Origin: a virus
IMG/VR virus record: IMGVR_UViG_3300025645_000060
Coordinates: 4,947-68,946 of that record
DNA: 64,000 nt
Strand: one strand, 5' to 3'
The notes below the pieces were generated by a model, which did not search any database, was not told the DNA's origin, and saw nothing but the letters and a program-made list of their open reading frames with translations. Shown piece after piece: positions 42,189 through 64,000 of this stretch. The translations under genes were made by a program, and so were the position numbers. Position 1 is the stretch's first letter; every line of letters starts with the position of its first letter.

Positions 42189-43457
42189 TCATTTCCACTT
42201 AAAATAATAAGGGTGCGAATGGTAGCAATCTTCCTTAAAATTGAAATTATAAAAACCGCTTATACCTTTTTTGAAATTAGTTTGAACCCAATTAGATGAA
42301 GGACTAAAAGCAGGGAAATTCCAATATTTGAATTTTTGAGATGTGGAGTTATCAAATATATCTTGATGGCTATCTCCTTTAATAAAGTATATTTCTAAAT
42401 CTTTACTAACTAAATTGTTATCATATAGATAGTTCTCTATTTTTTCAATCTGAATAGCATCTAATTTAGGCTTAAACCCAAACTTTAAATTTTTGCCATC
42501 CTTACCATGAGTAGATACAAATACTTTATTACCGTACACGTAATGATTTATAAATTTACGTTGGTTAGTTATGTTTACATTATTATACTTATACTCTATA
42601 AACTTCTTAAATGATGAATTAACCACATAAGAAAAGCTTCCAGAATGGTTGTCATCACAAATATTTATAACATCAATCTGTGAGTAATGCTTTACTAATT
42701 CGTCAATTAATCGAACCTTAAAAGATAACCCAACATCGAAAGCTTTTTCGTTATCCATGTTTTGAGGTAACTCATGCCCTTTACGTACCGTTTCGCCATC
42801 CCATCCATCCATGAAATCACCTAAATCAAATAAAATTAATTTATTAGACTTCTTATTTTCTATTATTTTACTTGCGTAAATAGATAACCTTTCTTCAACT
42901 TCGTACTCATCCCATTTACCCCCATATAAACCGTACCCATTAGGATTTGGATTCATTGCAATATGGGTATCAGTAAAGACAGAAACATCAAAAAGATAAC
43001 TACTATCAATATCTTTGACAGTTGTTTTAATAGGTTTCGTTCCTTTATATAACTCCTCTATTGATTCGCTTAACAAATTAACTAAATCAGGTTCTTTGTT
43101 ATCTGTTGTGTTTTCTCTAAATAGTATATTGAAAAACGGTGTTCCAGTATGAGATACTAACTTATAACTCTTAACATCCTCTCTAGGTAAGCTGTAAAAC
43201 TCGCAATACTCATCTATATCAAGCATCTTACCTGTCACGAAATTCCAAGCACTTAATACAAATGGTTTCGGATCATCAACTACCTTAGTAGACTTTGCTT
43301 TTTTGACAGATTTCTTCTTTCGATCTGAAATACCAATAAAATCTCTTTGCTCTTGAGTAATATAATACCTAGCAGTATCCCTACCTTCATCGTTACTCTT
43401 TACTTCTAAACCCAAAGACTTCGCTTCCTCTGGCATTAACCTAGTTCTTACTTTCAT
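42189..43457 (-). CDS. calcineurin-like metallophosphoesterase (phage A)
   Basis: DTH, GDFMD, DNH, HG and GDSH motifs. Confidence 0.75.
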   Translation of the reverse strand: MKVRTRLMPEEAKSLGLEVKSNDEGRDTARYYITQEQRDFIGISDRKKKSVKKAKSTKVVDDPKPFVLSAWNFVTGKMLDIDEYCEFYSLPREDVKSYKLVSHTGTPFFNILFRENTTDNKEPDLVNLLSESIEELYKGTKPIKTTVKDIDSSYLFDVSVFTDTHIAMNPNPNGYGLYGGKWDEYEVEERLSIYASKIIENKKSNKLILFDLGDFMDGWDGETVRKGHELPQNMDNEKAFDVGLSFKVRLIDELVKHYSQIDVINICDDNHSGSFSYVVNSSFKKFIEYKYNNVNITNQRKFINHYVYGNKVFVSTHGKDGKNLKFGFKPKLDAIQIEKIENYLYDNNLVSKDLEIYFIKGDSHQDIFDNSTSQKFKYWNFPAFSPSSNWVQTNFKKGISGFYNFNFKEDCYHSHPYYFKWK

Positions 43458-44032: not shown

Positions 44033-44133
44033 ATCTATTTATTTAGAAAGCGCATATGCAATAAGCATCCATAACGCCAATTGACTTAACACTAAAAATT
44101 CCATCATATTGTTTTATATTTTAGTTAAAAAAA

Positions 44134-44191
44134 AGATAACAGCCGATAAGATTCAACGCTAAAAAGCGCAGAACTTATCTATTCGTTTTTT
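44134..44191 (+). mobile_element. attC-like site 1 (A-tract class)
   Basis: GATAAC...GATAAG(A)TTC-CGCT/AGCG-GAACTTATC...CGTT hairpin. Confidence 0.65.
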
Positions 44192-44474: not shown

Positions 44475-44499
44475 TGTATTTATAGTTGAGTTTGTGAAA

Positions 44500-44556
44500 A
44501 AATAACAGTCGAAGATCATGCCATCGGAAAGGACGGCAGATTTCTTAGCGTTGTGT
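44500..44556 (+). mobile_element. attC-like site 2 (A-tract class)
   Basis: AATAACAGTC-GAAGATC-TGCC...GGCA-GATTTC...CGTTGTGT. Confidence 0.7.
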
Positions 44557-44562
44557 GTAATA

Positions 44563-44772
44563 CTAGCAACTACCATATCTGAAACTACCAAATCCTTCAC
44601 CATCGCATTCCTCATCTACAAAGAATCCAAGTTTATCAAGTTCTTCAATATCTTCCTTACTTACTAATTCAGGGTTTATATCTACATAAAAGTAGTCGTG
44701 TTCACAATGGCTTGGGTTTCTTGGGTTGCCATATTTTAAAAGGATTTGTAATGCTTTAATTAAATCTTCCAT
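44563..44772 (-). CDS. cassette cargo, small acidic protein
   Basis: Fills cassette 44551-44898. Confidence 0.7.
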   Translation of the reverse strand: MEDLIKALQILLKYGNPRNPSHCEHDYFYVDINPELVSKEDIEELDKLGFFVDEECDGEGFGSFRYGSC

Positions 44773-44809
44773 CTTATTTATTTAGTTTGTGGCTTAAATT
44801 CCGTACTAC

Positions 44810-44904
44810 ACACAACAATGTATATAGTTTATAAGCCAATTAATATTTGTTTTCAATTGTAATTTTCTGCTATGGCTTACAAAACCATATACTCAACGTT
44901 AGTA
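44810..44904 (+). mobile_element. attC-like site 3
   Basis: ACACAAC-AAT-GTATATAGTTTATAAGCCA...TGGCTTACAAAACCATATAC-TCAAC-GTTAGTA. Confidence 0.85.
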
Positions 44905-44943
44905 ACAATTATTTTTTTTTGCCACCAAGCAGTACGCACTTAC

Positions 44944-45411
44944 TCAATCGTTATTATAATGCTTTAAATAAGGCTGTTCTTTTTTGGTACATTTCTTTTT
45001 CCATCGTTTGTCTAAAAAGATTATATATCTAAATTGTCTTAGTGTTTCTTTTGTGGCTTTCTCTTTAAAACCACGCCTTTCCAACTCAGCCTTTTTATTT
45101 CGGTTGTTATTCGTTATTAAACTATTATGGTATGTTTTCCCCTCAAAGTTCCAGAAAGTACTTGTATGCTCACCAAAATAACTAAAATTAGCCGCTTGGT
45201 AAACAATACCTAAACCTCCACACCGTTCATCTGCAAAACTTTGAATCCACTTAACAGTCTTGTATTTACCTTTAATGTATTTTATGCTATAACTTATGGC
45301 TTTACTTTCTGTATTTTTAACAGCCTTATCATCAAACCACATTCTATTAAGTTCCTTGTATTGGTTTAGTTTCGTTCCTGTAACTAAAGAGCCTCCGCTT
45401 TGTGGGTTCAT
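44944..45411 (-). pseudogene. Mom-like/GNAT DNA-modification protein, apparently 5'-truncated
   Basis: ELNRMWFDD...ESKAIS...IQSFADERCG..GIVYQAANF; the N-terminal part and a closing attC are missing. Confidence 0.55.
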
Positions 45412-45555
45412 AGCATTATGCCGTTTACCTCAGTCATGTATTCTTTAAAAGTCATATTCTCGTTATTTATACCGCCTCAGACGGTGTTTAGCTTTTTCGT
45501 TATCACATAAGTTAACAAACATAAATTAATGTAAACATATCTGACTACATTTTGA

Positions 45556-45655
45556 AATGGAGTAGCGATTAAAGTTTCACCTCAATAACCACCACTCCAA
45601 ATAACCTGCCTTGGTAGCGACTCCAGAACATCAAATGATGCAACGACAGCAGCGA
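45556..45655 (-). ncRNA. candidate structured RNA, copy 1
   Basis: Homologous to 59911-60012; G.U-containing stem around GAGGTGAAAC. Confidence 0.65.
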
Positions 45656-45660
45656 CTCAG

Positions 45661-46053
45661 CTAAGAGTCGATATCTTTAAATATATTTTCCAAGTCTTTC
45701 TTTAAATACTCGTAGTTCAGTGCAGTATATCTAAGAACCTTCCATCCTAGTATAGCTGCGTTATTGTACTTTTCGCAATCTTTACTGTAGCCTGTAATGG
45801 AAGTGTGTCGGCTCTTATGTCCTACAATTCCCTCATACTCTATAGCCACATTGATACTCAGTATAGCAACATCAAATCTCCATCGCCTAGTCTTGTGGAA
45901 TCTATGTTCTTCTACGTAGGCTATTTCCATCTCGTCAAGTATGTTCAGTATATTAACCAAACCAACAGGTCTATTGTCAACTAGATCTTCCGCTCCTTTT
46001 ACTCTGCGCCCTTTATTCTTTAACTTCTCTACATCCTTTTTAGTCCATTTCAT
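45661..46053 (-). CDS. PD-(D/E)XK nuclease (DUF559-like)
   Basis: EHRFHKTRRWRFDVA...AIEYEG...KYNNAAILGWKVLR. Confidence 0.8.
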   Translation of the reverse strand: MKWTKKDVEKLKNKGRRVKGAEDLVDNRPVGLVNILNILDEMEIAYVEEHRFHKTRRWRFDVAILSINVAIEYEGIVGHKSRHTSITGYSKDCEKYNNAAILGWKVLRYTALNYEYLKKDLENIFKDIDS

Positions 46054-46075
46054 GTAACAAAAATACTAAAAAAAA

Positions 46076-46134
46076 AAATAACAGTCGATGAAGATTCAAC
46101 GATAAGAATCGCAGAACTTATCTCTTCGTTGTGC
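46076..46134 (+). mobile_element. attC-like site 4 (A-tract class; head of the main array)
   Basis: Near copy of site 1; ends CGTTGTGC. Confidence 0.75.
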
Positions 46135-53844: not shown

Positions 53845-54105
53845 TTAGTTTTTATTATTTATTGATTCTAAAAAATGTTCTTCATCATCGAAACCTAATA
53901 ATTGACAAATATAATCTGAGTTAAACCAAAATAAATCATTTATTTCTGTTTCAGTTGGTATATAACCACCGCCGCCATCTTTATATTCTTCTTCTAAAAA
54001 AACATCTAATATTTCTAATTGATTATAAGTTAATTTATCAGCTAACGATTTAGCGCCGGCCCAAAATTTAAATTCTTTTAAAGAAGTATTTGTAGTGTAA
54101 ATCAT
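53845..54105 (-). CDS. small acidic phage protein
   Basis: FKFWAGA...TETEINDLFWF. Confidence 0.7.
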   Translation of the reverse strand: MIYTTNTSLKEFKFWAGAKSLADKLTYNQLEILDVFLEEEYKDGGGGYIPTETEINDLFWFNSDYICQLLGFDDEEHFLESINNKN

Positions 54106-54128
54106 AATTTTTAGTTTAAAATGTGAGA
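54103..54128 (-). promoter_or_regulatory. duplicated 26-bp leader TCTCACATTTTAAACTAAAAATTATG (second copy at 54435-54460)
   Basis: Identical sequence ending in the ATG of two consecutive genes. Confidence 0.75.
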
Positions 54129-54176
54129 TTAAAAAGAGGACTTATTTTTGTGCCTCTGTAGGTTTTTATTTGTTCC

Positions 54177-54437
54177 TCATGTCCATTCTAAACGCTTTTG
54201 GGTATTTTTTATACATGATGAACCAAGATAAAAAATACCTTGTGACGCTTCTCCTATCGCCGCCATATCTTCTTCTGTAATGTGTGCTTCAACTACTTTT
54301 GGTCCTTCTATTGTATTAACTGCACAATCTTTATTCTCTAATGGTTTTCCGCAGCAAGCACAAGTGTTGTCGTTGTAACCATATTTATAGATGTTTCTAT
54401 CAAAAGAAGCCGTTTGAATAAAATCTAATGTTTTCAT
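54177..54437 (-). CDS. small Cys-motif protein
   Basis: CACCGKP...GSSC. Confidence 0.6.
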   Translation of the reverse strand: MKTLDFIQTASFDRNIYKYGYNDNTCACCGKPLENKDCAVNTIEGPKVVEAHITEEDMAAIGEASQGIFYLGSSCIKNTQKRLEWT

Positions 54438-54916
54438 AATTTTTAGTTTAAAATGTGAGATATTTAATTAATTTAATGCAATATACAGCCAATAACTAAT
54501 TGCTTGTATATTTTTTTGGCGATTATTTGAAAAAATATTGTAATTATCATAAAAACCGATGTTCTTGACTGAAAACATTATGCTAAAATCAGCAAGATAC
54601 CAATACCATTTTTTCTTTTAATACCATGACCAATAGCATATATCAAAGCGCTGTCCTCATTTGATCTATGGGTAATTCACCTTGTGAAGTGATGAAAATC
54701 TGTAATAATTGCGGAAAAAGACATAATAATATAATGATACTCATATTAGTTTAATTGTAATGATAAGTAAATCCCATAATCGTTTCGGTTTGATCTTCAT
54801 TAAAACATACGAGCAACACAGTTTCGTATAGCTTATATTCGACATAATCAATAATAAATACATCCATAATAGTTTGTTACATTTTGTACTTTACAAATGT
54901 AATAATAATTATTTTA

Positions 54917-54924
54917 TATATTTG
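54917..54924 (+). promoter_or_regulatory. -7 box (TATATTTG) of the rightward operon
   Basis: TAnnTTTG 30 bp upstream of 54954. Confidence 0.6.
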
Positions 54925-54953
54925 CAACATACAATTAAACTAAAATCTCAACT

Positions 54954-55253
54954 ATGAACAAAATCAAGAACATCAATTTCCGACTTACACCTTACGAGCA
55001 TAAGATTATAATCTCTTATGAAAACCAATACAATAAGACTATTGTATTAACGCCTAATTACAATGATGTCTATGAATACGCCAAAATGAATAGCTGGCTT
55101 GAATGGATCGAAGATGATATCCGAGATGGCGATTTCATACAAAGCTATCGTTCAATCACATTCCAACAATTATTGCAAGATCAAGATTTAGCAGATCAGT
55201 TATTTCATGATTACATCAATAAAATCTGCAAAGAAAACACTTGTCTATCCTAA
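54954..55253 (+). CDS. hypothetical protein
   Basis: ORF with promoter and terminator. Confidence 0.6.
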   Translation: MNKIKNINFRLTPYEHKIIISYENQYNKTIVLTPNYNDVYEYAKMNSWLEWIEDDIRDGDFIQSYRSITFQQLLQDQDLADQLFHDYINKICKENTCLS

Positions 55254-55265
55254 AAGTAGGATAAC

Positions 55266-55298
55266 CGGCGCAGTTTGTTCTATGGCTGCGCCGTTTTT
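55266..55298 (+). terminator. intrinsic terminator
   Basis: CGGCGCAG/CTGCGCCG plus TTTTT. Confidence 0.75.
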
Positions 55299-55336
55299 AA
55301 ATCAATTAATTATTTAATTTAAAAAAACTTATTACT

Positions 55337-55762
55337 ATGAGTAAATTATTAGAAAATGAAGTTACTGGATTAGAAATCTTTAATCCATCAAATTTAAAAG
55401 GTGTAAATTTAGCCGATTTGGAAGTTAGCCAAGTCAGCGACAATTCCGCTTATTGGTCACCAGTTGAAAAAGGCGAAACAAAATTAGTATTCTTTGATTC
55501 AATGACAGTTGAAACTATATCAGATTTAGAATCTGGAGAGGAAAAACTTTTGCCAACTGTACATCTTTGGGAGCAATCAGATAAAGGCGAACTTTCAAGA
55601 GTTTCAAATAGTTCTGCCAGACTTGTTGGCTTATTTGAGCGAATGAACTACAGACAAGGAACGCCGTTAAAAATTACTTTTGCCGGAAAAGAAAAGAATA
55701 AGAACAATTCGTACCAATCCGATTCGTGGGATGTGCGCCAATTGTATCCAAAGAATTCATAG
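55337..55762 (+). CDS. putative OB-fold ssDNA-binding protein
   Basis: YWSP...KITFAGKEKNKNN; sits among recombination genes. Confidence 0.45.
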   Translation: MSKLLENEVTGLEIFNPSNLKGVNLADLEVSQVSDNSAYWSPVEKGETKLVFFDSMTVETISDLESGEEKLLPTVHLWEQSDKGELSRVSNSSARLVGLFERMNYRQGTPLKITFAGKEKNKNNSYQSDSWDVRQLYPKNS

Positions 55763-55778
55763 TTTTAGTTTTAGGTTA

Positions 55779-55816
55779 GCCGGTTGACTTGTGAGATTGT
55801 CAACCGGCATTTTTTT
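55779..55816 (+). terminator. intrinsic terminator
   Basis: GCCGGTTGAC/GTCAACCGGC plus T7. Confidence 0.8.
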
Positions 55817-56030
55817 AATTAATTTATAAAATTTAAACATGAAGTTTCTAAAATATATAGTTGTTAAATTCGATGGCGAACTTGAAATGCGCTTAATGAG
55901 ATTAACTGAACCTATCAATATAGATAATAGCTACAACTATAGATTTGTAAGGGTAAAAAAAGAAAAATATCCTCATGAACTTATAGTTAAAGTAGACTGC
56001 ATTCAATACGGCGAATAATAATAATAAACT

Positions 56031-56828
56031 ATGAACACAAGTATAAACCTATCAGAAATGATAACAGACGAACCGATCCTCACCGCTGATAGAGTAATAG
56101 ATAATACTGTTACTTATCATTTTAGTATTGCTCAGAATACCCCAGAATGGGATGAAATAAGGAAAGGAAAAATTACGGCCTCACCGGCGAAATGCTTGTT
56201 AGTACATTCGGTTTTAAAAAGCGGAAAATCAGCAGTTGGATCAGTAGGAACTTTGGCAAAGGGCGCTATTACTTACGCCGAAAAAATAGCAAAACAAAGA
56301 TACGCGCCGCGTTCAGGCGATGGTGATTTTAAGTTCTATTCGCAAGACATGGAGCGAGGACATGAGACTGAAGCGGCAGCCAATGAACTATTTCAAGAAC
56401 GCACCGGGATCAAAACACAAGAGGTCGGATTCCTTAGTCGGAAATTAAAAGAGGTTGATCGGTTAATTGGATGCAGTCCAGATAGAATCATAATGGACGA
56501 GGAAACGTCCCTCATTAAAAGCGGATTAGAAATGAAGTCAGCTAACTCTGATATTCATTGGGCGAGATTACGCAATCCTCAACTGTTAGTTGATGAACAT
56601 ATGGCGCAAGTGCAGTTTCAGATGTTTATATCAGGTGCAGGTAGCTGGTACTTGACAAGCTATAACGCTAGTTATGACAGGCCAGAGGATAGACTTATAA
56701 TATGTAAGATACTAAGAGATGATTTTATTATTGATAGATTCCATAATCAAGTGATTGAGATGGAGAGTTACATTAATGATGTTTTATTCGATATAAATCA
56801 TTTAGCAGAAATCGAAAAAGTATGGTAG
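56031..56828 (+). CDS. YqaJ viral recombinase/exonuclease (phage B)
   Basis: QNTPEW...RKGKITAS...MERGHETE...GCSPD...LEMK...QVQFQM. Confidence 0.9.
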   Translation: MNTSINLSEMITDEPILTADRVIDNTVTYHFSIAQNTPEWDEIRKGKITASPAKCLLVHSVLKSGKSAVGSVGTLAKGAITYAEKIAKQRYAPRSGDGDFKFYSQDMERGHETEAAANELFQERTGIKTQEVGFLSRKLKEVDRLIGCSPDRIIMDEETSLIKSGLEMKSANSDIHWARLRNPQLLVDEHMAQVQFQMFISGAGSWYLTSYNASYDRPEDRLIICKILRDDFIIDRFHNQVIEMESYINDVLFDINHLAEIEKVW

Positions 56829-58093
56829 AATTAAGATCGTATCAAAGCCAAGCGGTATCGGATGGGCTGGAATTATTGCGAACAAATAAAATTGTTTGTT
56901 TGTCAATGGAAGTTCGGACAGGCAAGACATTAACCGCGTTAGCGTTGGCCGAAAAATACGGCGCTAAAAAAGTTTTATTCGTATCAAAAAAGAAAGCGAT
57001 AGTAGAAGGGTCGATAAAAAAGGACTACGAACTATTAAAACCAGATTACGATATCGCTTTTTGGAATTATGCGTCTTTACATAAAGTAGTTGGAAAGTTT
57101 GACATTGTGATTGTTGACGAAAGTCATTCCATTGCCGCTTTCCCCAAGCCAAGCAAAAGAGCGAAAATGCTCAAAGTCATTTGCAAAAATACTCCTATTA
57201 TATATTTGTCCGGAACATTTACACCGGAATCATATAGTCAATTATACCATCAATTTTGGATATCTTCACACTCGCCTTTTATAGCTTACTCTAATTTCTA
57301 CAAATGGGCCAAAGATTATGTTTATGTCTACCAGAAAAGAATTGGCGCTTATAAAGTAAATAATTACGAGCGAGCAAACAAAACAAAAATAGATGCCAGA
57401 ACAAAGCATTTGTTTTTATCTGTTAGCCAAGAAACTGCTGGATTCATACAACCGATTAAAGAAATATTTTTGCAAGTTCCGATGAACTCAGTTCAGAAAG
57501 AAATGATTACTAATATTGATCAACGTGGATTCACTTCGTATGCCGGCGAGTTATGTATTCCAGCCAATGGCGCAATCAAGCTAAGTAAGAAAGCGCAGAT
57601 TAGCGGAGGAACTTGTATTATGGATGATGGTAGTGTGGCAGTTGTATCTAAGAATAAGGTTAATTATATATATGACAGATTCCAAAAACCTAATAAAAGC
57701 GATACATCAGATAGATACAATGAATATAAGATTGCAATATTATATGTATACCAAGCGGAAGGAGATTTGCTAAAAGAAAAATTTACTAATTGGACATCTA
57801 ACGAAGATATATTTAGAGAAAATGATGATGTTGTTTTTATTGCTCAGATTCGTTCTGCTCGTGAAGGAGTAGATTTATCTTCTGCGGATTGCTTAGTTAT
57901 GTATTCAATTGATTTTTCTGCCACATCATATTTTCAAGGTAAAGCAAGAATACAATCCAAGAACAGAACAAAGCCAGCCAGATTGTATTGGATATTCAGC
58001 GATGGAGGAATTGGTCCTTATGTATATTCAGCCGTAAGTAAGAAAAAGAACTTTACACAATCTTATTATAATCAAGCGAAATATAATAAATGA
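56822..58093 (+). CDS. SF2 (SNF2-like) helicase
   Basis: LRSYQ, VRTGKT, DESH, LSGT, EGVDL and ARI motifs. Confidence 0.85.
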   Translation: MVELRSYQSQAVSDGLELLRTNKIVCLSMEVRTGKTLTALALAEKYGAKKVLFVSKKKAIVEGSIKKDYELLKPDYDIAFWNYASLHKVVGKFDIVIVDESHSIAAFPKPSKRAKMLKVICKNTPIIYLSGTFTPESYSQLYHQFWISSHSPFIAYSNFYKWAKDYVYVYQKRIGAYKVNNYERANKTKIDARTKHLFLSVSQETAGFIQPIKEIFLQVPMNSVQKEMITNIDQRGFTSYAGELCIPANGAIKLSKKAQISGGTCIMDDGSVAVVSKNKVNYIYDRFQKPNKSDTSDRYNEYKIAILYVYQAEGDLLKEKFTNWTSNEDIFRENDDVVFIAQIRSAREGVDLSSADCLVMYSIDFSATSYFQGKARIQSKNRTKPARLYWIFSDGGIGPYVYSAVSKKKNFTQSYYNQAKYNK

Positions 58094-58416
58094 GCGAATC
58101 AGCTATTCAAAAAATCATAGCCAAAAAATTAAGGAAAGCTGGTTTCCTTGTGACGACAATGCCAGCACCATCTGGATGGCCAGACATAAGAGCATTCGGT
58201 GGTTTGAGAACTATATTAATCGAAGTAAAGCGAGAAAGCAAAAAGGCATCTCCGCTGCAAGAGGTAATGATGCAGAAATTTAAAGATGCTGGAGCAGAGG
58301 TGTACTTGATGGACAATATTTATATGGTTGATGATGTAATCTCTATGACATTATCAGATGTGGTAGAGATGAGAATGAATGAGATATCAGACAATAATAC
58401 CGATATGGACACTTAG
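58090..58416 (+). CDS. VRR-NUC domain nuclease
   Basis: ESAIQ...GWPDI...IEVK...SPLQ. Confidence 0.85.
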   Translation: MSESAIQKIIAKKLRKAGFLVTTMPAPSGWPDIRAFGGLRTILIEVKRESKKASPLQEVMMQKFKDAGAEVYLMDNIYMVDDVISMTLSDVVEMRMNEISDNNTDMDT

Positions 58417-58454
58417 TGCATCGTATAATGTACAATAAATACTAAAAATAACCA

Positions 58455-59645
58455 ATGGCTAAGAAAACCAGAACAAGACTCAAGTCTATACAAGCAGAGG
58501 TTCTAGGATTAAAAGTAAAAAAGAATGATAAAGGTAGAGACTCCGCTAGATACTATCTTAATGAATCGCAACGGATTGAGCTAGGTCTGCCAGCTATACC
58601 TAAAGAGCGTAGATTCGTAGAGATGATTAAAAAGTTCGATAAGAATGATAATATCATTTCAAGGACTGAGAAGCTACAGAGCGAGCCGATAGATGTGCCT
58701 GATAATTTTGAAGTGACTCAAATAAGTACCAATACTACAAGTGGTATACAATGGATAAGAACACGACCAAAAAAGGGCGTAGCAGGGGAGAATGATATAA
58801 AAGAGCTGCATGATAAATTCATAAAAGAAGTTAAAAAATACGCTTTTAAGTACCCTACTTTTAAAAGATCTAAATCAAAAGAAAGTCATTGCTTAGTTTT
58901 TGATCCTGCAGACATTCACATAGGTAAGATATGCAGCAGTTTTGAAACTGGAGAGACTTACAACAGCCAAATCGCAGTAAAAAGAGTAAAGGAAGGACTA
59001 CATGGTATCTTAGATAAATCTAAAGGGTATAAAATAGATAAAATTATCTTTATCGCTGGAAATGACATACTACACGTAGATAATGCACACAGCACGACTA
59101 CAAGTGGAACTGGTCAAGACACAGATCAGATGTGGTATGATAACTACAATATGGCTAAGAAGTTGCTTGTTCAAATAATAGAAACGCTTTTAATTGTAGC
59201 GGATGTAGAGGTAGTATACAACCCAAGTAACCATGACTTTACACATGGATTTATGTTATTGGATAGCATAAGCTCATGGTTCCACAATTGCAAGCAAGTA
59301 AAGTTTAATAACGACATGAGCCATAGAAAATACACCGTTTATGGAAAAAACTTAATAGGCAGTACACATATGGATGGTGCTAAAGTGGACAAGCTGCATG
59401 GGTTAATGGCTGAAGAAGCAAGTCAATTTTGGCATGGTTGTAAGCATAGGTATATTTATGGGCATCATGTTCATCATAAAACATCTAAAGACATATTCAG
59501 TGTTTGCATAGAGACTTTAAGGAGTCCAAGTGGCACGGATAGCTGGCATCATAGAAAAGGTTTTCAACATGCACCGCAAGCTATAGAAGGATTTATACAC
59601 CACAAAGAGCATGGGCAAATAGCACGATTGACACACATATTTTAA
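58455..59645 (+). CDS. calcineurin-like metallophosphoesterase (phage B)
   Basis: ADIH, GND.LH, NHD and GHHVHH motifs. Confidence 0.8.
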   Translation: MAKKTRTRLKSIQAEVLGLKVKKNDKGRDSARYYLNESQRIELGLPAIPKERRFVEMIKKFDKNDNIISRTEKLQSEPIDVPDNFEVTQISTNTTSGIQWIRTRPKKGVAGENDIKELHDKFIKEVKKYAFKYPTFKRSKSKESHCLVFDPADIHIGKICSSFETGETYNSQIAVKRVKEGLHGILDKSKGYKIDKIIFIAGNDILHVDNAHSTTTSGTGQDTDQMWYDNYNMAKKLLVQIIETLLIVADVEVVYNPSNHDFTHGFMLLDSISSWFHNCKQVKFNNDMSHRKYTVYGKNLIGSTHMDGAKVDKLHGLMAEEASQFWHGCKHRYIYGHHVHHKTSKDIFSVCIETLRSPSGTDSWHHRKGFQHAPQAIEGFIHHKEHGQIARLTHIF

Positions 59646-59649
59646 CTAG

Positions 59650-59910
59650 ATGCGGACAAAAAAAGAAATCCAAGAACTAGGAATGAATATAGTAGAATCT
59701 GCCAAGAATGTAAGTTGGAAAAATGCAGAGCAACTCCATCGAATAACTAAGAATATCTACTACCTCGAACGCTCTATTCAGTTACTAGACCAGTATCCAT
59801 CAAAAATAGATCTACTATTCTTAAAAGCTCAACTAGCAACATCAAAAGATAAAGCAGACAAAACAACTGTTGATTGTATTAATTACATTCTAAAGATATC
59901 GGCTCATTGA
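59650..59910 (+). CDS. hypothetical protein
   Basis: ORF. Confidence 0.55.
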   Translation: MRTKKEIQELGMNIVESAKNVSWKNAEQLHRITKNIYYLERSIQLLDQYPSKIDLLFLKAQLATSKDKADKTTVDCINYILKISAH

Positions 59911-60012
59911 GCTGGTGCTGTCGTTGCAGCATTTTGATGTTCTGGAACGCTACCAATTAGGCAGCTTTATGTGGGGAGATGATCACGAGGTGAAACGTGG
60001 TTGTTTCCCTAT
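59911..60012 (+). ncRNA. candidate structured RNA, copy 2
   Basis: Homologous to 45556-45655; 16-bp G.U-rich stem around AGGTGAAA. Confidence 0.65.
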
Positions 60013-60227
60013 TTTCTATCCATAATAACCTTAATTAAAGAATAGAATAACTTACCAAGCGCAATCCATCTATTGAATTGATACCATTTAATCTGTTTGT
60101 ATATCCCATTAGGAAACAAGATGAATGTAGCTTCTGTTAGTTTATTGAATAACATAATAATAATAGACTCCTTCTCTAGCTGATCTAGGTTGGTTGTAAT
60201 TTTCTTTTCGTAATTTCTTAGGATCAT
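60009..60227 (-). CDS. small amphipathic protein, paralog of 40480-40683
   Basis: FPNGIY...W..LGKL; overlaps the endolysin stop. Confidence 0.7.
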   Translation of the reverse strand: MILRNYEKKITTNLDQLEKESIIIMLFNKLTEATFILFPNGIYKQIKWYQFNRWIALGKLFYSLIKVIMDRK

Positions 60228-60751
60228 ATTAAATCTAAATTGAACGGAGTGTATCCGTTTCCGTTGGTAAATAAAGTTGTCTTTTGTTTGTTTTTAATTG
60301 GATCGGTACTATACGACACATGAACCCATCTAGGAGAGCTTAATCCTTTAACTGTCGGATGGTCATCATATTCCCATATCAACTTATAGTAATCCATATT
60401 CCGTAGTATATAAAGGAATATATCTCTATTATAAACTCCTAGTTTTTGTGAATATGAATCATCTATATCTATAGCGGCCACATCACTTGTCACCATATGG
60501 TCAGATGTCTTTGATCCTCCTATCATTTTATTTAATTGCTTCGATCTATAGAAGCTATTAATTTTTAATGGGACACCCATATTAAGTCTTAGCGGCTGAA
60601 AGAAATCTTTAGCTAGATGCTTGATCACTACCATCTGCCTGAAGTTTGGCTTGTTTTCTATACCTTGCCTCGTGGCTGTTTGTGACCTCACCACTTCATT
60701 CCATGATACATTATCGGAAATTCTACTGTCCATCTCTATTAGTATTTTCAT
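60224..60751 (-). CDS. peptidase M15 family endolysin
   Basis: INSFYRS..LN..IGGS..SDH...AIDI...WVHVS. Confidence 0.9.
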   Translation of the reverse strand: MKILIEMDSRISDNVSWNEVVRSQTATRQGIENKPNFRQMVVIKHLAKDFFQPLRLNMGVPLKINSFYRSKQLNKMIGGSKTSDHMVTSDVAAIDIDDSYSQKLGVYNRDIFLYILRNMDYYKLIWEYDDHPTVKGLSSPRWVHVSYSTDPIKNKQKTTLFTNGNGYTPFNLDLI

Positions 60752-60753
60752 AA

Positions 60754-60969
60754 TTAATGATCACAATTTATTTGCTCGATCTTGAATTCTAGCACTAAAA
60801 TCTGATGCTGTAGATCAGCTATTAACTCATTACATTCTACATATCTAGTTATATAGGAGTCCTGTCTTTCTATTGATAAGTTCCATACACCTAATATCTC
60901 TCCTACTAATCCAGTAGACACAATAGTAGCTAATATAGCCAACCAATTACTTTTTATTTTTTCCCTCAT
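60754..60969 (-). CDS. single-TM lysis-associated protein
   Basis: N-terminal TM plus coiled coil; next to the endolysin. Confidence 0.55.
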   Translation of the reverse strand: MREKIKSNWLAILATIVSTGLVGEILGVWNLSIERQDSYITRYVECNELIADLQHQILVLEFKIEQINCDH

Positions 60970-60989
60970 ATCTAAGTTTCTATGTACTT

Positions 60990-61024
60990 AAAAAAATTCA
61001 CCCAGCAGATATTCCGCTGGGTGA
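60990..61024 (-). terminator. intrinsic terminator
   Basis: TCACCCAGC/GCTGGGTGA plus U-tract. Confidence 0.7.
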
Positions 61025-61030
61025 TATTAC

Positions 61031-61243
61031 TTACTTAATTGGTTCGTCAATTACGTGCCTCTCTGGATTCTTAATGAACCCATAAATAGTTAAAGCAAAA
61101 CCTATTATAGTTTGTACTGCTCCCCATATAGAGTCTAGGTTCTGGTTCACGAAGCTAAAGATATCTACAAAATTATCCAATCCAAACAAAGTTAGTACTG
61201 TACCAACTGCTGTTAAGATATGTCTCAATGCACTTTTTTTCAT
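61031..61243 (-). CDS. small two-TM holin-like protein (phage B copy)
   Basis: Close paralog of 2738-2947. Confidence 0.65.
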   Translation of the reverse strand: MKKSALRHILTAVGTVLTLFGLDNFVDIFSFVNQNLDSIWGAVQTIIGFALTIYGFIKNPERHVIDEPIK

Positions 61244-61286
61244 GATCTTATTTATTTAATGATTAAAAAATTATTGTTATTTTTGA

Positions 61287-64000
61287 TTAATACGCTCGTT
61301 TTACTGTTAATTTTAAATCGTTATATTCATAATCTGTATCGGTAACACTATCGAGTTTTAGTTCTATGTATTCTCCAGCATTGATTTCTATGTCATCTGT
61401 AAAATTAATGGGAAAAACCGATTCAATCGCTTTAAATTTATGCTGCTCAACTTGTACACCATTTACCCATATCTCCAGTTGTAACATTTCATCTAATGTG
61501 TACCCTGTAATGTCTCCCCTAACTAGTACCGTATACATTGCCGTACTGTCAACGGTGATTCTCTCCGAAGTAGTTGATGCTGTTGTGTTTATCTCTTCGC
61601 CCCACTTATTACTGAAATTCACTGTGGTAGCAGATGTGGTAGATATCGTTTGAAAATTGGATTCCAGACCACCATAAGCAACATTCAGATTAATAGTATT
61701 GCCATCACTAATAGCCAAGGTCGAAGATGTTAATGTAAGTGTTTGATCGTCTAATGCTGCATCAACCCACCCCATACCTCCTGTCACCTTACTCCACACT
61801 TGACCATTAACTGGTGCTGCTCCTACGCCTAGAAATGTAGTGCCATCAAAATAGGCATTACCGCCTTCCATGTGCAGTTCAAAAATAGGATCACTAAGTC
61901 CTATTCCTACATATTTGTTATCTACGTAAACTACACCAAGTAAAGTACTCCATGATATACTGGGTATAAGTGGTTGATCTGTTAAATCATCATATGAGCC
62001 GCTAAAAGGTAATGACGTTGTTACTAATTGATCGTTAGCATCTACTCCTACACCGTTTACGGCTGTGCCGCCTGTAAGGTCTGTTACTTTTAAAGAGCCG
62101 TTTATTTCTATTATATCATTATCAAACTCACCGTATATCAATGGAGTGGCTGTCGTTGAATTATCTATATATAATCGGTTGTCCGATGTATTATTTCTTC
62201 CTGCGTTGTGACCTATTGAGACAGAACCTTCTGTGCCTACATACCCCGCAAATGCCCCAATTGAGACCGAACTACCACTAGAGCCATAGCCGCTATAGAA
62301 ACCTATGCCTGTATTATAATCTCCGCTTGCATTGCCTAATGCTAATGTACCCATAGATATATTATGGGTTGATGCTGGGTCTATACTGCCCGCTGATCTA
62401 TATCCTATTGCTACATTATTAGTGCCGATGGTTAATTCTTCCAATGATCTTGGCCCCATAGCAAAATTATCCGACCCAGATGTTAATGCCTGTAAGCTTT
62501 CGTAACCTAACCCCAAATTTTTAGACCCCGATGTTAATGCTTCAAAAGAGGCTGTACCTATTCCGATGTTGTTACTTCCAGTAAATGTTGTATTGCCAGC
62601 TCTATTGATAAATAGATTATCTAGCCCAGCGTCAAAATATACACTCCCTACTACGTGTAGGTTACTTCCGTATGCTGGCGAACTTATGCCTATACCCACA
62701 TCACCATCCATATAAACAGCATCTAATGGATCAGTACCATCCACAAACTTTCCATCAGCCGTAGTCAAATCTACTTCAACTAACTGACCGTTAGCATCAA
62801 ATGCCGCTGACTTTGTTGCTGCGCCTCCGATTCGGTCTGATATTCTTACATCACCAACTACATCTAGTTTGGCTGCTGGTGTGTTCGTTCCGATGCCAAC
62901 ACCAGACGACTTAATCACGAAGTCATTGGTTAGGTAATTATCGCCAGTAATGTCGACAAAAAATTTATCTGCTACTTGTCCATTACCAGTTGCTCCGTAA
63001 CTCACCTTATAGTCGGATAATCCTACTGCTCCAGTTGGTACAACACCACCAAGCACCCTAGCCCATCCACCAATATAAGATGATGGATACTCTAAGGAAT
63101 AGCCATAATAGGGAGCACCATTAGACATTACTAGATTAAATTGAGCAGAATTATCCCCTACTCTTATCTGTTCTGCGTTATCTAATTGCAATGTGCCTCC
63201 TATCCCTACATCGAACGCATAATCTATGCCGCCAACCACATAATCCCATTGCTCACCGTCAACTAGTTGTCCATTAGCATCAAATGCCGCTTGCTCAATT
63301 GGAGTGCTCCCAATTCTATCTGACACTCGCAAGTCTCCATTTATATCTACAGTTGCCGATGGATCAGTTTTCATAAATCCCACTTTACCATCACTTTTGA
63401 TCCTTACTTTTTCCGACAGAACCTCTTCATAACTTGTACCGAATGCTAAGTCTGAACTCCAATCCCCATCTGACTTCACCCCAAAAGCATTGACGTTGAT
63501 TGTTGAAATTCTTGGCGTTGTTTCATAAGTCCCATCTATTGCTAACCCACTTGAGAAAGTTGTGTTAAGACTTGGTGTTCGGAATAAATACCCAGCACCA
63601 GATAGTGAACCAAACTCCACACCAGCAGTAGATGTAATTTGGTAAGAAAAAGGGTCTGTGGCAGTAGTATACGATGGAATATCTTCCCCATGTTGTTGAA
63701 CAAATTCTAATAAACCGACTATGTTAGTAGTATCTTGGATTTCATTTGTGCTGCTTGTGTCATTGTCTATACTTATGTGATAAGTGCCACTCGTATCTGT
63801 ACCGATCCCATCTGCACCGTACTGCTGTACATAAGTGAGCAACCCATCAATATTACTAGTGTCTTGATTGTCTGTATTATCTAGATATGGCAATAGGTCA
63901 ACAAAGTTTCCATCTTCAATATATAATGTATTGCTAGATATATTAATAGTCTGGTCATCTGTGTTAGTATAGCCACTTAAATCTACACTATTACCCTCTG
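61287..64000 (-). CDS. tail fibre/adhesin-like protein, 5'-partial (frame open to the window edge)
   Basis: Shares modules with 3334-7557; no stop between 63893 and 64000. Confidence 0.8.
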   Translation of the reverse strand, partial: EGNSVDLSGYTNTDDQTINISSNTLYIEDGNFVDLLPYLDNTDNQDTSNIDGLLTYVQQYGADGIGTDTSGTYHISIDNDTSSTNEIQDTTNIVGLLEFVQQHGEDIPSYTTATDPFSYQITSTAGVEFGSLSGAGYLFRTPSLNTTFSSGLAIDGTYETTPRISTINVNAFGVKSDGDWSSDLAFGTSYEEVLSEKVRIKSDGKVGFMKTDPSATVDINGDLRVSDRIGSTPIEQAAFDANGQLVDGEQWDYVVGGIDYAFDVGIGGTLQLDNAEQIRVGDNSAQFNLVMSNGAPYYGYSLEYPSSYIGGWARVLGGVVPTGAVGLSDYKVSYGATGNGQVADKFFVDITGDNYLTNDFVIKSSGVGIGTNTPAAKLDVVGDVRISDRIGGAATKSAAFDANGQLVEVDLTTADGKFVDGTDPLDAVYMDGDVGIGISSPAYGSNLHVVGSVYFDAGLDNLFINRAGNTTFTGSNNIGIGTASFEALTSGSKNLGLGYESLQALTSGSDNFAMGPRSLEELTIGTNNVAIGYRSAGSIDPASTHNISMGTLALGNASGDYNTGIGFYSGYGSSGSSVSIGAFAGYVGTEGSVSIGHNAGRNNTSDNRLYIDNSTTATPLIYGEFDNDIIEINGSLKVTDLTGGTAVNGVGVDANDQLVTTSLPFSGSYDDLTDQPLIPSISWSTLLGVVYVDNKYVGIGLSDPIFELHMEGGNAYFDGTTFLGVGAAPVNGQVWSKVTGGMGWVDAALDDQTLTLTSSTLAISDGNTINLNVAYGGLESNFQTISTTSATTVNFSNKWGEEINTTASTTSERITVDSTAMYTVLVRGDITGYTLDEMLQLEIWVNGVQVEQHKFKAIESVFPINFTDDIEINAGEYIELKLDSVTDTDYEYNDLKLTVKRAY

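Follow-up and report, generated by a model that had tools for sequence, protein, structure and literature searches.

A repeated element with covarying hairpins and a near-invariant core at the ends of gene units in an aquatic phage record

Two copies of one element and their layout

Here we describe a repeated element of about 135 nt that closes two gene units in a 64,000-nt stretch of viral DNA (hereafter the window), which covers positions 4947-68946 of the 68,946-nt IMG/VR record IMGVR_UViG_3300025645_000060, rated 72% complete. Copy A lies on the minus strand, behind a 130-aa open reading frame (ORF) and ahead of a gene for a Mom-like DNA modification protein; copy B lies on the plus strand, behind an 86-aa ORF. 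Each lies on the strand that codes for the surrounding genes and closes a gene unit (Table 1). Read 5' to 3', each copy begins with a hairpin (P1) in which the upstream ORF has its stop codon; a core of about 46 nt, a second hairpin (P3) and a short run of U follow. A covariance model, R1, which was built from seven copies of the element and run over the whole window with filters off, returned these two matches and, as its next best, one of only 9.7 bits (E 2.2). When the window is compared with itself by BLAST, 45574-45688 pairs with 59996-59881 at 76.9% identity over 121 nt (E 1.1e-12).

The letter strings cited in a first-pass annotation of this DNA are present in both copies where that annotation had placed them. 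Its further remark that the copies start right after stop codons has to be corrected: the element opens at AAGATATCG, 12-16 nt ahead of the stop codon of the upstream ORF. The same spacing holds for all seven copies, in each of which the stop is located in the P1 loop or at its edge. Because the shared sequence opens before the stop and an additional hairpin, P1, is included, the element measures about 135 nt and not 100. The upstream genes are indeed unrelated, as had been proposed, with BLASTP of the two ORFs giving zero alignments at E<=100. The letters they share are read in different frames, as GAT ATC GAC TCT TAG in copy A and as AAG ATA TCG GCT CAT TGA in copy B, and different frames in unrelated ORFs mean that the conservation is not at the level of protein. 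A coding role for the element itself was also considered and rejected, since the readings as read-through or as a small ORF differ between A and B.

The seven copies fall into three sequence types. Copy A stands for itself; the B type comprises copy B and a near-identical copy on contig L239; and the C type comprises four copies (L003, L237, L204 and L220) that follow the same 130-aa ORF as copy A and have a near-identical P1 and core.

Table 1. Positions of the two copies, their parts and adjoining features in the window
Feature	Positions	Strand	Evidence or remark
Copy A, whole (P1, core, P3, U run)	45547..45681	minus	R1 138.8 bits, E 6.8e-28, model positions 1-143
Copy A, P1	45648..45676	minus	RNAalifold consensus, pair counts, single-sequence folds, ORF end at 45661
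Copy A, core TGCTGTCGTTGCATCATTTGATGTTCTGGAGTCGCTACCAAGGCAG	45606..45651	minus	43/45 aligned bases identical to copy B
Copy A, P3	45558..45599	minus	14-bp stem, 3 G.U pairs, GAGGTGAAAC (45583-45574) on top
Copy B, whole	59889..60023	plus	R1 111.9 bits, E 3.7e-22
Copy B, P1	59894..59919	plus	CGGCUC (59900-59905) with GAGCUG (59909-59914)
Copy B, core TGCTGTCGTTGCAGCATTTTGATGTTCTGGAACGCTACCAATTAGGCAG	59916..59964	plus	Base-by-base comparison with copy A
Copy B, P3	59971..60012	plus	17-bp stem, 6 G.U pairs, loop AGGUGAAA within GAGGTGAAAC (59987-59996)
Upstream ORF of copy A, 130 aa	45661..46053	minus	phrog_503 (function unknown), E 2.5e-25
TATTTTTG, TAnnTTTG match	46058..46065	minus	5 nt upstream of the start codon of the 130-aa ORF
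TATGTTTG, TAnnTTTG match	45516..45523	minus	35 nt past P3 of copy A, 105 nt before the mom-like start
Mom-like DNA modification protein, 155 aa	44944..45411	minus	PF25680 E 2.5e-46; phrog_1384 E 1.2e-36
Upstream ORF of copy B, 86 aa, no family	59650..59910	plus	Last gene of the plus-strand unit 54954-59910

Pairing, strand and the conserved core

P3 is a 42-nt hairpin, followed by the tail UUUC in copy A (UUU at 45557-45555) and by UUUCUAU in copy B, where its final 4 nt overlap the end of the convergent ORF 60009-60227 (minus). Since MAFFT aligns neither P3 nor the part of the core with alternative weak pairings (see below) in structural register, the pairs of P3 were counted by script in the homology register. 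Among the 14 pairs that are homologous between A and B, six are unchanged, four have changed on one side, four have changed on both sides and none is broken. When the 3' arm of copy B was shuffled, all 14 standard pairs were obtained in only 21 of 200,000 trials; with the partner displaced by 1-3 positions, just 6-9 of the 14 remained. Judged by these counts, P3 is a selected helix. The first-pass annotation had described a stem whose letters differ and whose pairing is kept around an invariant GAGGTGAAAC; the kept pairing stands, and the invariance does not. GAGGTGAAAC is found only in A, B and the B-type copy of L239, three of the seven, and the four C-type copies have GGTAAAAT, GGTGAAAT, GATGAAAT or GATGAATT at this site. 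The C-type copies do retain a helix in the place of P3, but it is a different and longer one, the top of which differs among the four.

P1 is a 6-bp hairpin, to which RNAalifold adds four outward pairs from the conserved AGAYA and UGCU. The inner stem of copy A joins CGACUC (45670-45665) to GAGUCG (45658-45653), with an outer extension of AG.AU with GCU.., and its loop, UUAGCU, contains the TAG stop codon (45663-45661); the C type likewise has TAG in the loop. Compared with A, P1 of copy B has one A-U pair changed to G-C and one G-C pair changed to G.U, and the TGA stop codon of the 86-aa ORF (59908-59910) lies at the junction of its loop and 3' arm. Across the seven copies the pairing of P1 is intact in 100% of cells, compared with only 19-62% in slid registers. 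One of its pairs is A-U in four copies, G.U in one (L220) and G-C in two, and two pairs vary on one side. Compensatory changes are accordingly seen in P3, and a single one in P1.

The two hairpins point to an RNA on the sense strand. As had been argued from the G.U pairs, which make up 3 of the 14 pairs of P3 in copy A and 6 of the 17 in copy B, the sense strand folds far more stably than its complement: the fold energy of P3 is -20.4 (A) and -22.5 (B) kcal/mol in sense and -5.9 and -9.4 in antisense. For the whole element the sense values are -39.9 (z -2.87) in A and -45.0 (z -3.91) in B, and the antisense values -23.9 (z -1.46) and -28.5 (z -3.17). A constrained structure at the level of RNA, on the sense strand, is supported by these sequence comparisons.

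Between the two hairpins lies the core, which spans TGCTGTCG to GGCAG and measures 46 nt in A and 49 nt in B. Outside the core, A and B share all 10 bases of the P3 loop; their stems agree less, in 16 of 28 positions for P3 and in 9 of 12 for P1. Since the helices have drifted, recent copying of the whole element does not explain the invariant core. The comparison of copy A with the four C-type copies points the same way, as over the 51 nt from P1 to GTTCTGGA one base differs (two in L220). For the ORF adjoining copy A, identity is 78-79% over all positions and 49-54% at third codon positions. The binomial probability of such conservation of P1 and core is 5e-5 at an identity of 0.78 and 2e-14 at 0.5. 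To judge from these figures, the core is under constraint at the level of sequence, well above its surroundings. A small hairpin (P2a) can form inside it, in copy A from GCAUC (45641-45637) and GAUGU (45632-45628) around the loop AUUU. P2a appears in the alignment consensus and in six of seven single-sequence folds, copy B being the exception: a G at 59929 disrupts one pair there, and a T at this place in L239 restores it. Alternative weak pairings exist in all three types, either CUGUC/GGCRG around P2a or a GCU/GGC hairpin with a variable loop, and single-sequence folds do not distinguish between them.

Relatives, record and neighbouring genes

The first-pass annotation had proposed a search of viral metagenomes with a model of the element, and pattern scans brought five additional copies. 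The exact-pattern stretches from IMG/VR (at least 120 from one scan and 64 from another) were screened with nhmmer, and among the matches listed only L003/L004 and the window's own loci score. This leaves one true further locus, L003, in record G001 (48,765 nt, 98% complete), where R1 and a pattern scan that allowed up to 3 mismatches agree on a single copy. A candidate at L033 proved to be a high-GC chance match. The metagenome scan gave four true copies in 55 stretches (L237, L204, L220 and L239), and the species-genome scan none in 56, mostly from one high-GC actinobacterial sequence. Because the core occurs in none of the species genomes scanned, a reading as attP or as a fragment of a host gene was set aside for now. 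There was no match of A or B by BLASTN to isolate phages or of B to plasmids, and none of R1 to a first Bacteroidia genome or to a set of 151, which are a sample only. Relatives of the 130-aa ORF were found at three loci, of which two distant ones lack the element, and the 86-aa ORF occurs at none of 34 loci with relatives of the exonuclease encoded next to copy B. That the element belongs to no known family, as first supposed, agrees with Rfam 15, which has no match at gathering score in the window and none even at E<=10 in the 251 nt around each copy, with its models of riboswitches, of hammerhead, twister, pistol, hatchet and HDV-like ribozymes, of HEARO, of group I/II introns and of pRNA included. 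The sequencing runs that contain the window are labelled freshwater metagenomes, and one metagenome contig bears a TARA name.

The element had also been said to occur once in each phage, which is plausible: the 98%-complete G001 has a single copy, and the record that carries both A and B may be one genome or two. In contig L237 (49,949 nt), the start of the 130-aa ORF runs straight into the equivalent of record position 105, so that about 51 kb (record 105-50999) form a closed unit in relatives. The remaining 18 kb resemble the separate contig L239 and contain a second endolysin and tail-fibre set related to the first; this last part of the window also carries the only primase and helicases, and the primase and helicase of window 46-60 kb are missing from G001. 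The junction at 46054 (record ~51000) is spanned without a difference by a 1,119-nt contig from X1, a run that may be that of the source sample, and the longest contig of run X3 among those compared has 95,867 nt, close to the ~96 kb implied by a completeness of 72%. The record may thus be a single genome of about 96 kb whose halves have diverged, or it may join two phages. Each half has one of two paralogous exonuclease-like genes (phrog_22398 / phrog_704), at 42189-43457 (minus) and 58455-59645 (plus), and in L239 a homologue of the former occupies the place of the latter.

The 130-aa ORF upstream of copy A has, besides the match in Table 1, weaker matches to homing-endonuclease and HNH-endonuclease PHROGs (E about 6e-6), and DUF559 is found in 10-16% of the members of the Atlas clusters nearest to it, which is a lead only. 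Its protein has no match in Pfam, NCBIfam or the PDB sequences, and its single-sequence AlphaFold model has a mean pLDDT of 53 and was not used for a fold search. It is likely, from these similarities, to be a small endonuclease. The box TATTTTTG would be the promoter of the short unit that ends in copy A, and TATGTTTG, past copy A, may also have promoter activity. In the C type, the 130-aa ORF overlaps the stop codon of a preceding HNH-like ORF by ATGA (L003 270-290 / L237 6195-6215) and its translation should be coupled to that of the HNH-like ORF; in the window, by contrast, the 130-aa ORF is preceded by a repeat and a promoter-like box of its own.

The mom-like gene that follows copy A covers positions 51-200 of the 202 of its Pfam profile, with the first 50 missing. 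A 15-codon ORF precedes it and overlaps its start (ATGA), and an in-frame TGA at 45430-45432 rules out a longer reading. Contig depth over 44768-45401 exceeds that of the flanks several-fold in each of the four runs, which makes it probable that these samples commonly contain related mom genes. In the four C-type relatives, homology ends right after the core (window 45592) and returns at 44040, and the mom cassette is absent, which indicates that the cassette went in exactly where the element lies. A contig from another sample goes from 44495 straight to 46071, without the endonuclease gene, copy A and mom. A second repeat, E2 (62 nt, 88.7% identical, intergenic), lies on the minus strand at 44127-44187 and 46069-46130, and its two direct copies flank the endonuclease gene, copy A, the mom-like gene and two small ORFs. 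The inner hairpin of E2 shows compensation (GCGCU/AGCGU and GCGAU/AUCGU), and the repeat ends in 8-11 T; its upstream copy leads into the promoter-like box TATTTTTG. From this arrangement E2 looks like a composite of terminator and promoter.

The unit closed by copy B encodes a RecE-like exonuclease, a helicase, a resolvase-like protein and an exonuclease. Copy B abuts the end of a convergent lysis cassette, and no gene follows on the same strand. The block 59641-61913, with the 86-aa ORF, copy B, an endolysin and small ORFs, is 98.5% identical to L239, the flanks being about 74% identical, and loose contig ends of run X4 lie at precisely 59641 and 61913. On this evidence the block is a recently exchanged module. 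Farther away, a perfect 28-nt repeat (54102-54129 and 54434-54461) stands at the starts of two neighbouring 86-aa ORFs on the minus strand (53845-54105 and 54177-54437), beside a divergent control region (54437-54954).

The host is probably a member of the Bacteroidota. The nearest isolate relatives of the 791-aa primase/helicase are in phages of Nonlabens, Cellulophaga and Flavobacterium. In addition, the pattern TAnnTTTG, which we take to be the -7 promoter box of Bacteroidota, occurs 106 times in the window and 77.4 +/- 8.3 times in shuffles, none of 100 shuffles reaching 106. It often lies 5-35 nt from start codons (for example at 46058, 50229, 54917, 30369 and 42157), which fits Bacteroidota-type promoters with short leaders.

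Possible functions and comparison with known systems

What might such an element do? To us it seems quite possible, if somewhat short of probable, that it is an RNA module lying at the 3' end of transcription units and acting in cis. It would be transcribed as the 3' end of a gene unit, with P3 and the U run stopping the transcript or shielding its 3' end. A sequence-specific factor, be it a phage protein, a host protein or RNA polymerase itself, would bind the core and, in the A and B types, also the loop of P3. This factor would set how far transcription stops or how long the upstream mRNA lives, and the element would thereby insulate neighbouring transcription units from each other. A ribosome terminating in the loop of P1 would melt P1, so that translation of the upstream ORF could feed into the fold. 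We infer these activities (transcription, termination or stabilisation, factor binding and coupling to translation) from sequence. The strand, the position at the end of units, the stop codon in P1, and the terminal hairpin with its U run fit the 3' end of a transcript, and helices that keep their pairing around a core that keeps its letters argue for a specific partner of the core. The predicted promoter lies about 0.5 kb from the element for copy A and about 5 kb for copy B. The hairpin of copy B is called terminator-like by a terminator scan (17 pairs, 6 G-C, loop of 8, tail TTTCTATCCA).

Several points weigh against this cis-acting 3'-end module. The same scan does not call the hairpin of copy A terminator-like, because it is followed by only three U, and the U run is weak in general (3 U in A, 3-4 in the C type). 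P3 is also longer and lower in G-C than the clear terminators found elsewhere on the contig, at 61024-60998 (minus) and 55266-55293 (plus). The P3 loop differs among the four near-identical C-type copies, which weakens the idea of a binding site for the loop, and the core barely varies, so that covariation cannot be read there. The shuffle control for P1 and P2a was not significant, with 79 of 500 shuffles reaching the observed score, because there are so few distinct sequences. No RNA runs for the phage are listed among public runs. Finally, all seven copies come from close relatives among aquatic phage contigs, and the element is absent from all 34 loci with relatives of the copy-B exonuclease (56-72% identity), so the phage group at large does not need it.

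The first-pass annotation had taken the element for a functional RNA, which the sense-strand structure and the constraint on the core bear out; it had also named a ribozyme, a decoy or a trans-acting small RNA (sRNA), and for these nothing specific emerged, as no ribozyme model matches and a scan with the core gave no outstanding target. We consider it unlikely that the element acts in trans, as an sRNA from the 3' end of the upstream mRNA or as a protein sponge or decoy. A piece of about 130 nt, from P1 to the U run, would then be released by processing or from an internal promoter, and its single-stranded core would pair with target mRNAs or capture a host protein. sRNAs from 3' untranslated regions have a conserved unpaired stretch just ahead of a terminal hairpin and U run, and the layout of the element resembles theirs. 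The letters of the core are conserved while the helices covary, and the same RNA at two unrelated loci suggests that the RNA itself is kept and not its neighbours. However, when duplexes of the core with either strand of the 68.9-kb record were computed, only its own antisense came up and no site stood out (best -35.7 kcal/mol; mean -15.2, sd 4.4, over 13,782 windows), no promoter-like motif was noticed just upstream of P1 within the ORFs, and an sRNA would leave the start inside the ORF and the stop in the P1 loop unexplained. Somewhat further from probable, in our estimate, is a module that works chiefly as DNA, namely a conserved terminator cassette through whose homology otherwise unrelated genes are exchanged, or the footprint of a small mobile unit. 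Its hairpins would be ordinary terminators, and its core a recombination substrate or a DNA-binding site. The break in homology between the A locus and the C type exactly after the core, with the mom cassette inserted there, would be accounted for, as would the contig that skips from 44495 to 46071, the flanking E2 repeats and the TAnnTTTG motif after copy A. There is also a precedent, in that PeSLs of T4-type phages are reported to be composite terminator/promoter motifs through which unrelated sequences are exchanged (PMC4122927). Such a module fails to explain why the stems of P1 and P3 have diverged (57-75% identity) with compensation when the core still agrees in 43 of 45 positions, and the G.U pairs and strand asymmetry indicate RNA. 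Moreover, the record has just two copies, and the block shared with L239 at the B locus starts at 59641 and not at the element.

Covarying helices around invariant unpaired nucleotides are typical of riboswitches and self-cleaving ribozymes, the core then being a ligand pocket or a catalytic site that has P3 as its expression platform, and copy A does lie upstream of a mom-like gene. We regard this as very improbable given that no Rfam model matches at E<=10, that copy B is followed only by a convergent gene, and that the genes downstream of the A and C types differ. The narrow distribution, with absence from more distant relatives, might also suggest a functionless duplicated remnant plus two ordinary terminators; this is hard to credit when the core is 98% identical, against about 50% at third codon positions of the adjoining ORF, and when two helices show compensatory changes. 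Nor does the element resemble an omega RNA, since the neighbour of copy A is a 130-aa DUF559-like protein, not one of the size of TnpB or IscB, no nuclease lies directly upstream of copy B, and the variable parts of the element are its paired stems.

A bolder reading, and a doubtful one, is that the element represents a new class of structured phage RNA in which the invariant 46-nt core, flanked by covarying helices, serves for specific binding or for catalysis. Such an RNA might be a new kind of factor-dependent signal for termination or antitermination in Bacteroidota phages; it might also capture a host protein, or serve as RNA partner to the small DUF559-like nuclease whose gene adjoins the element in five of the seven copies. 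To our knowledge, little is established about how Bacteroidota phages end, insulate and time their transcription units, and we know of no catalogued RNA families in the aquatic phage group to which the element belongs. Compensated drift of helices around fixed letters is a classic signature of a working RNA, and a portable RNA module with its own conserved core would offer a handle on the insulation of transcription units in these phages and could serve as an engineering part for them. The stakes are limited by the very narrow distribution so far.

Compared with known systems, the element appears to belong to none of the four that it most recalls, namely the nut and put sites, the RNase III sites of T7, the PeSLs and the terminator-containing viral candidates. 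The nut and put sites are cis-acting RNAs that alter the behaviour of RNA polymerase at terminators. Like nutL and nutR of lambda and putL and putR of HK022, the element has two copies in opposite orientation, on the sense strands of two diverging units, and combines a conserved linear stretch with a hairpin whose stem varies and whose loop is kept (here in the A and B types). Those sites, however, lie near early promoters and have no U run after them, whereas the element closes a unit, is twice as long, has no sequence similarity to them and is accompanied by no identified N-like protein. The RNase III hairpins of T7 are also long, irregular and repeated, stand after stop codons and form protective 3' hairpins of mRNAs; they share no sequence likeness with P3, which has 14-17 bp and a conserved loop. 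PeSLs are likewise short, repeated, intergenic stem-loop modules bordering variable cassettes (PMC4122927), and here, too, homology with relatives breaks at the module. They differ in occurring in many copies per genome as an early promoter plus stem-loop, whereas the element has two copies on the record and one in G001, a 46-nt invariant core in which no promoter can be recognised, and covarying stems that are not kept by exchange. A hairpin with a U run at the end of genes is, lastly, the hallmark of Rho-independent terminators and of many candidates from a 2023 survey of IMG/VR 3.0, which required at least three matching regions, reported 8,495 candidate structured RNAs and gives 1,241 of them a predicted terminator (PMC10690425). 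Ordinary terminators have neither an invariant 46-nt core upstream nor a hairpin over the stop codon, and the element may already be among the candidates of that survey as an unnamed DNAVirus_X entry.

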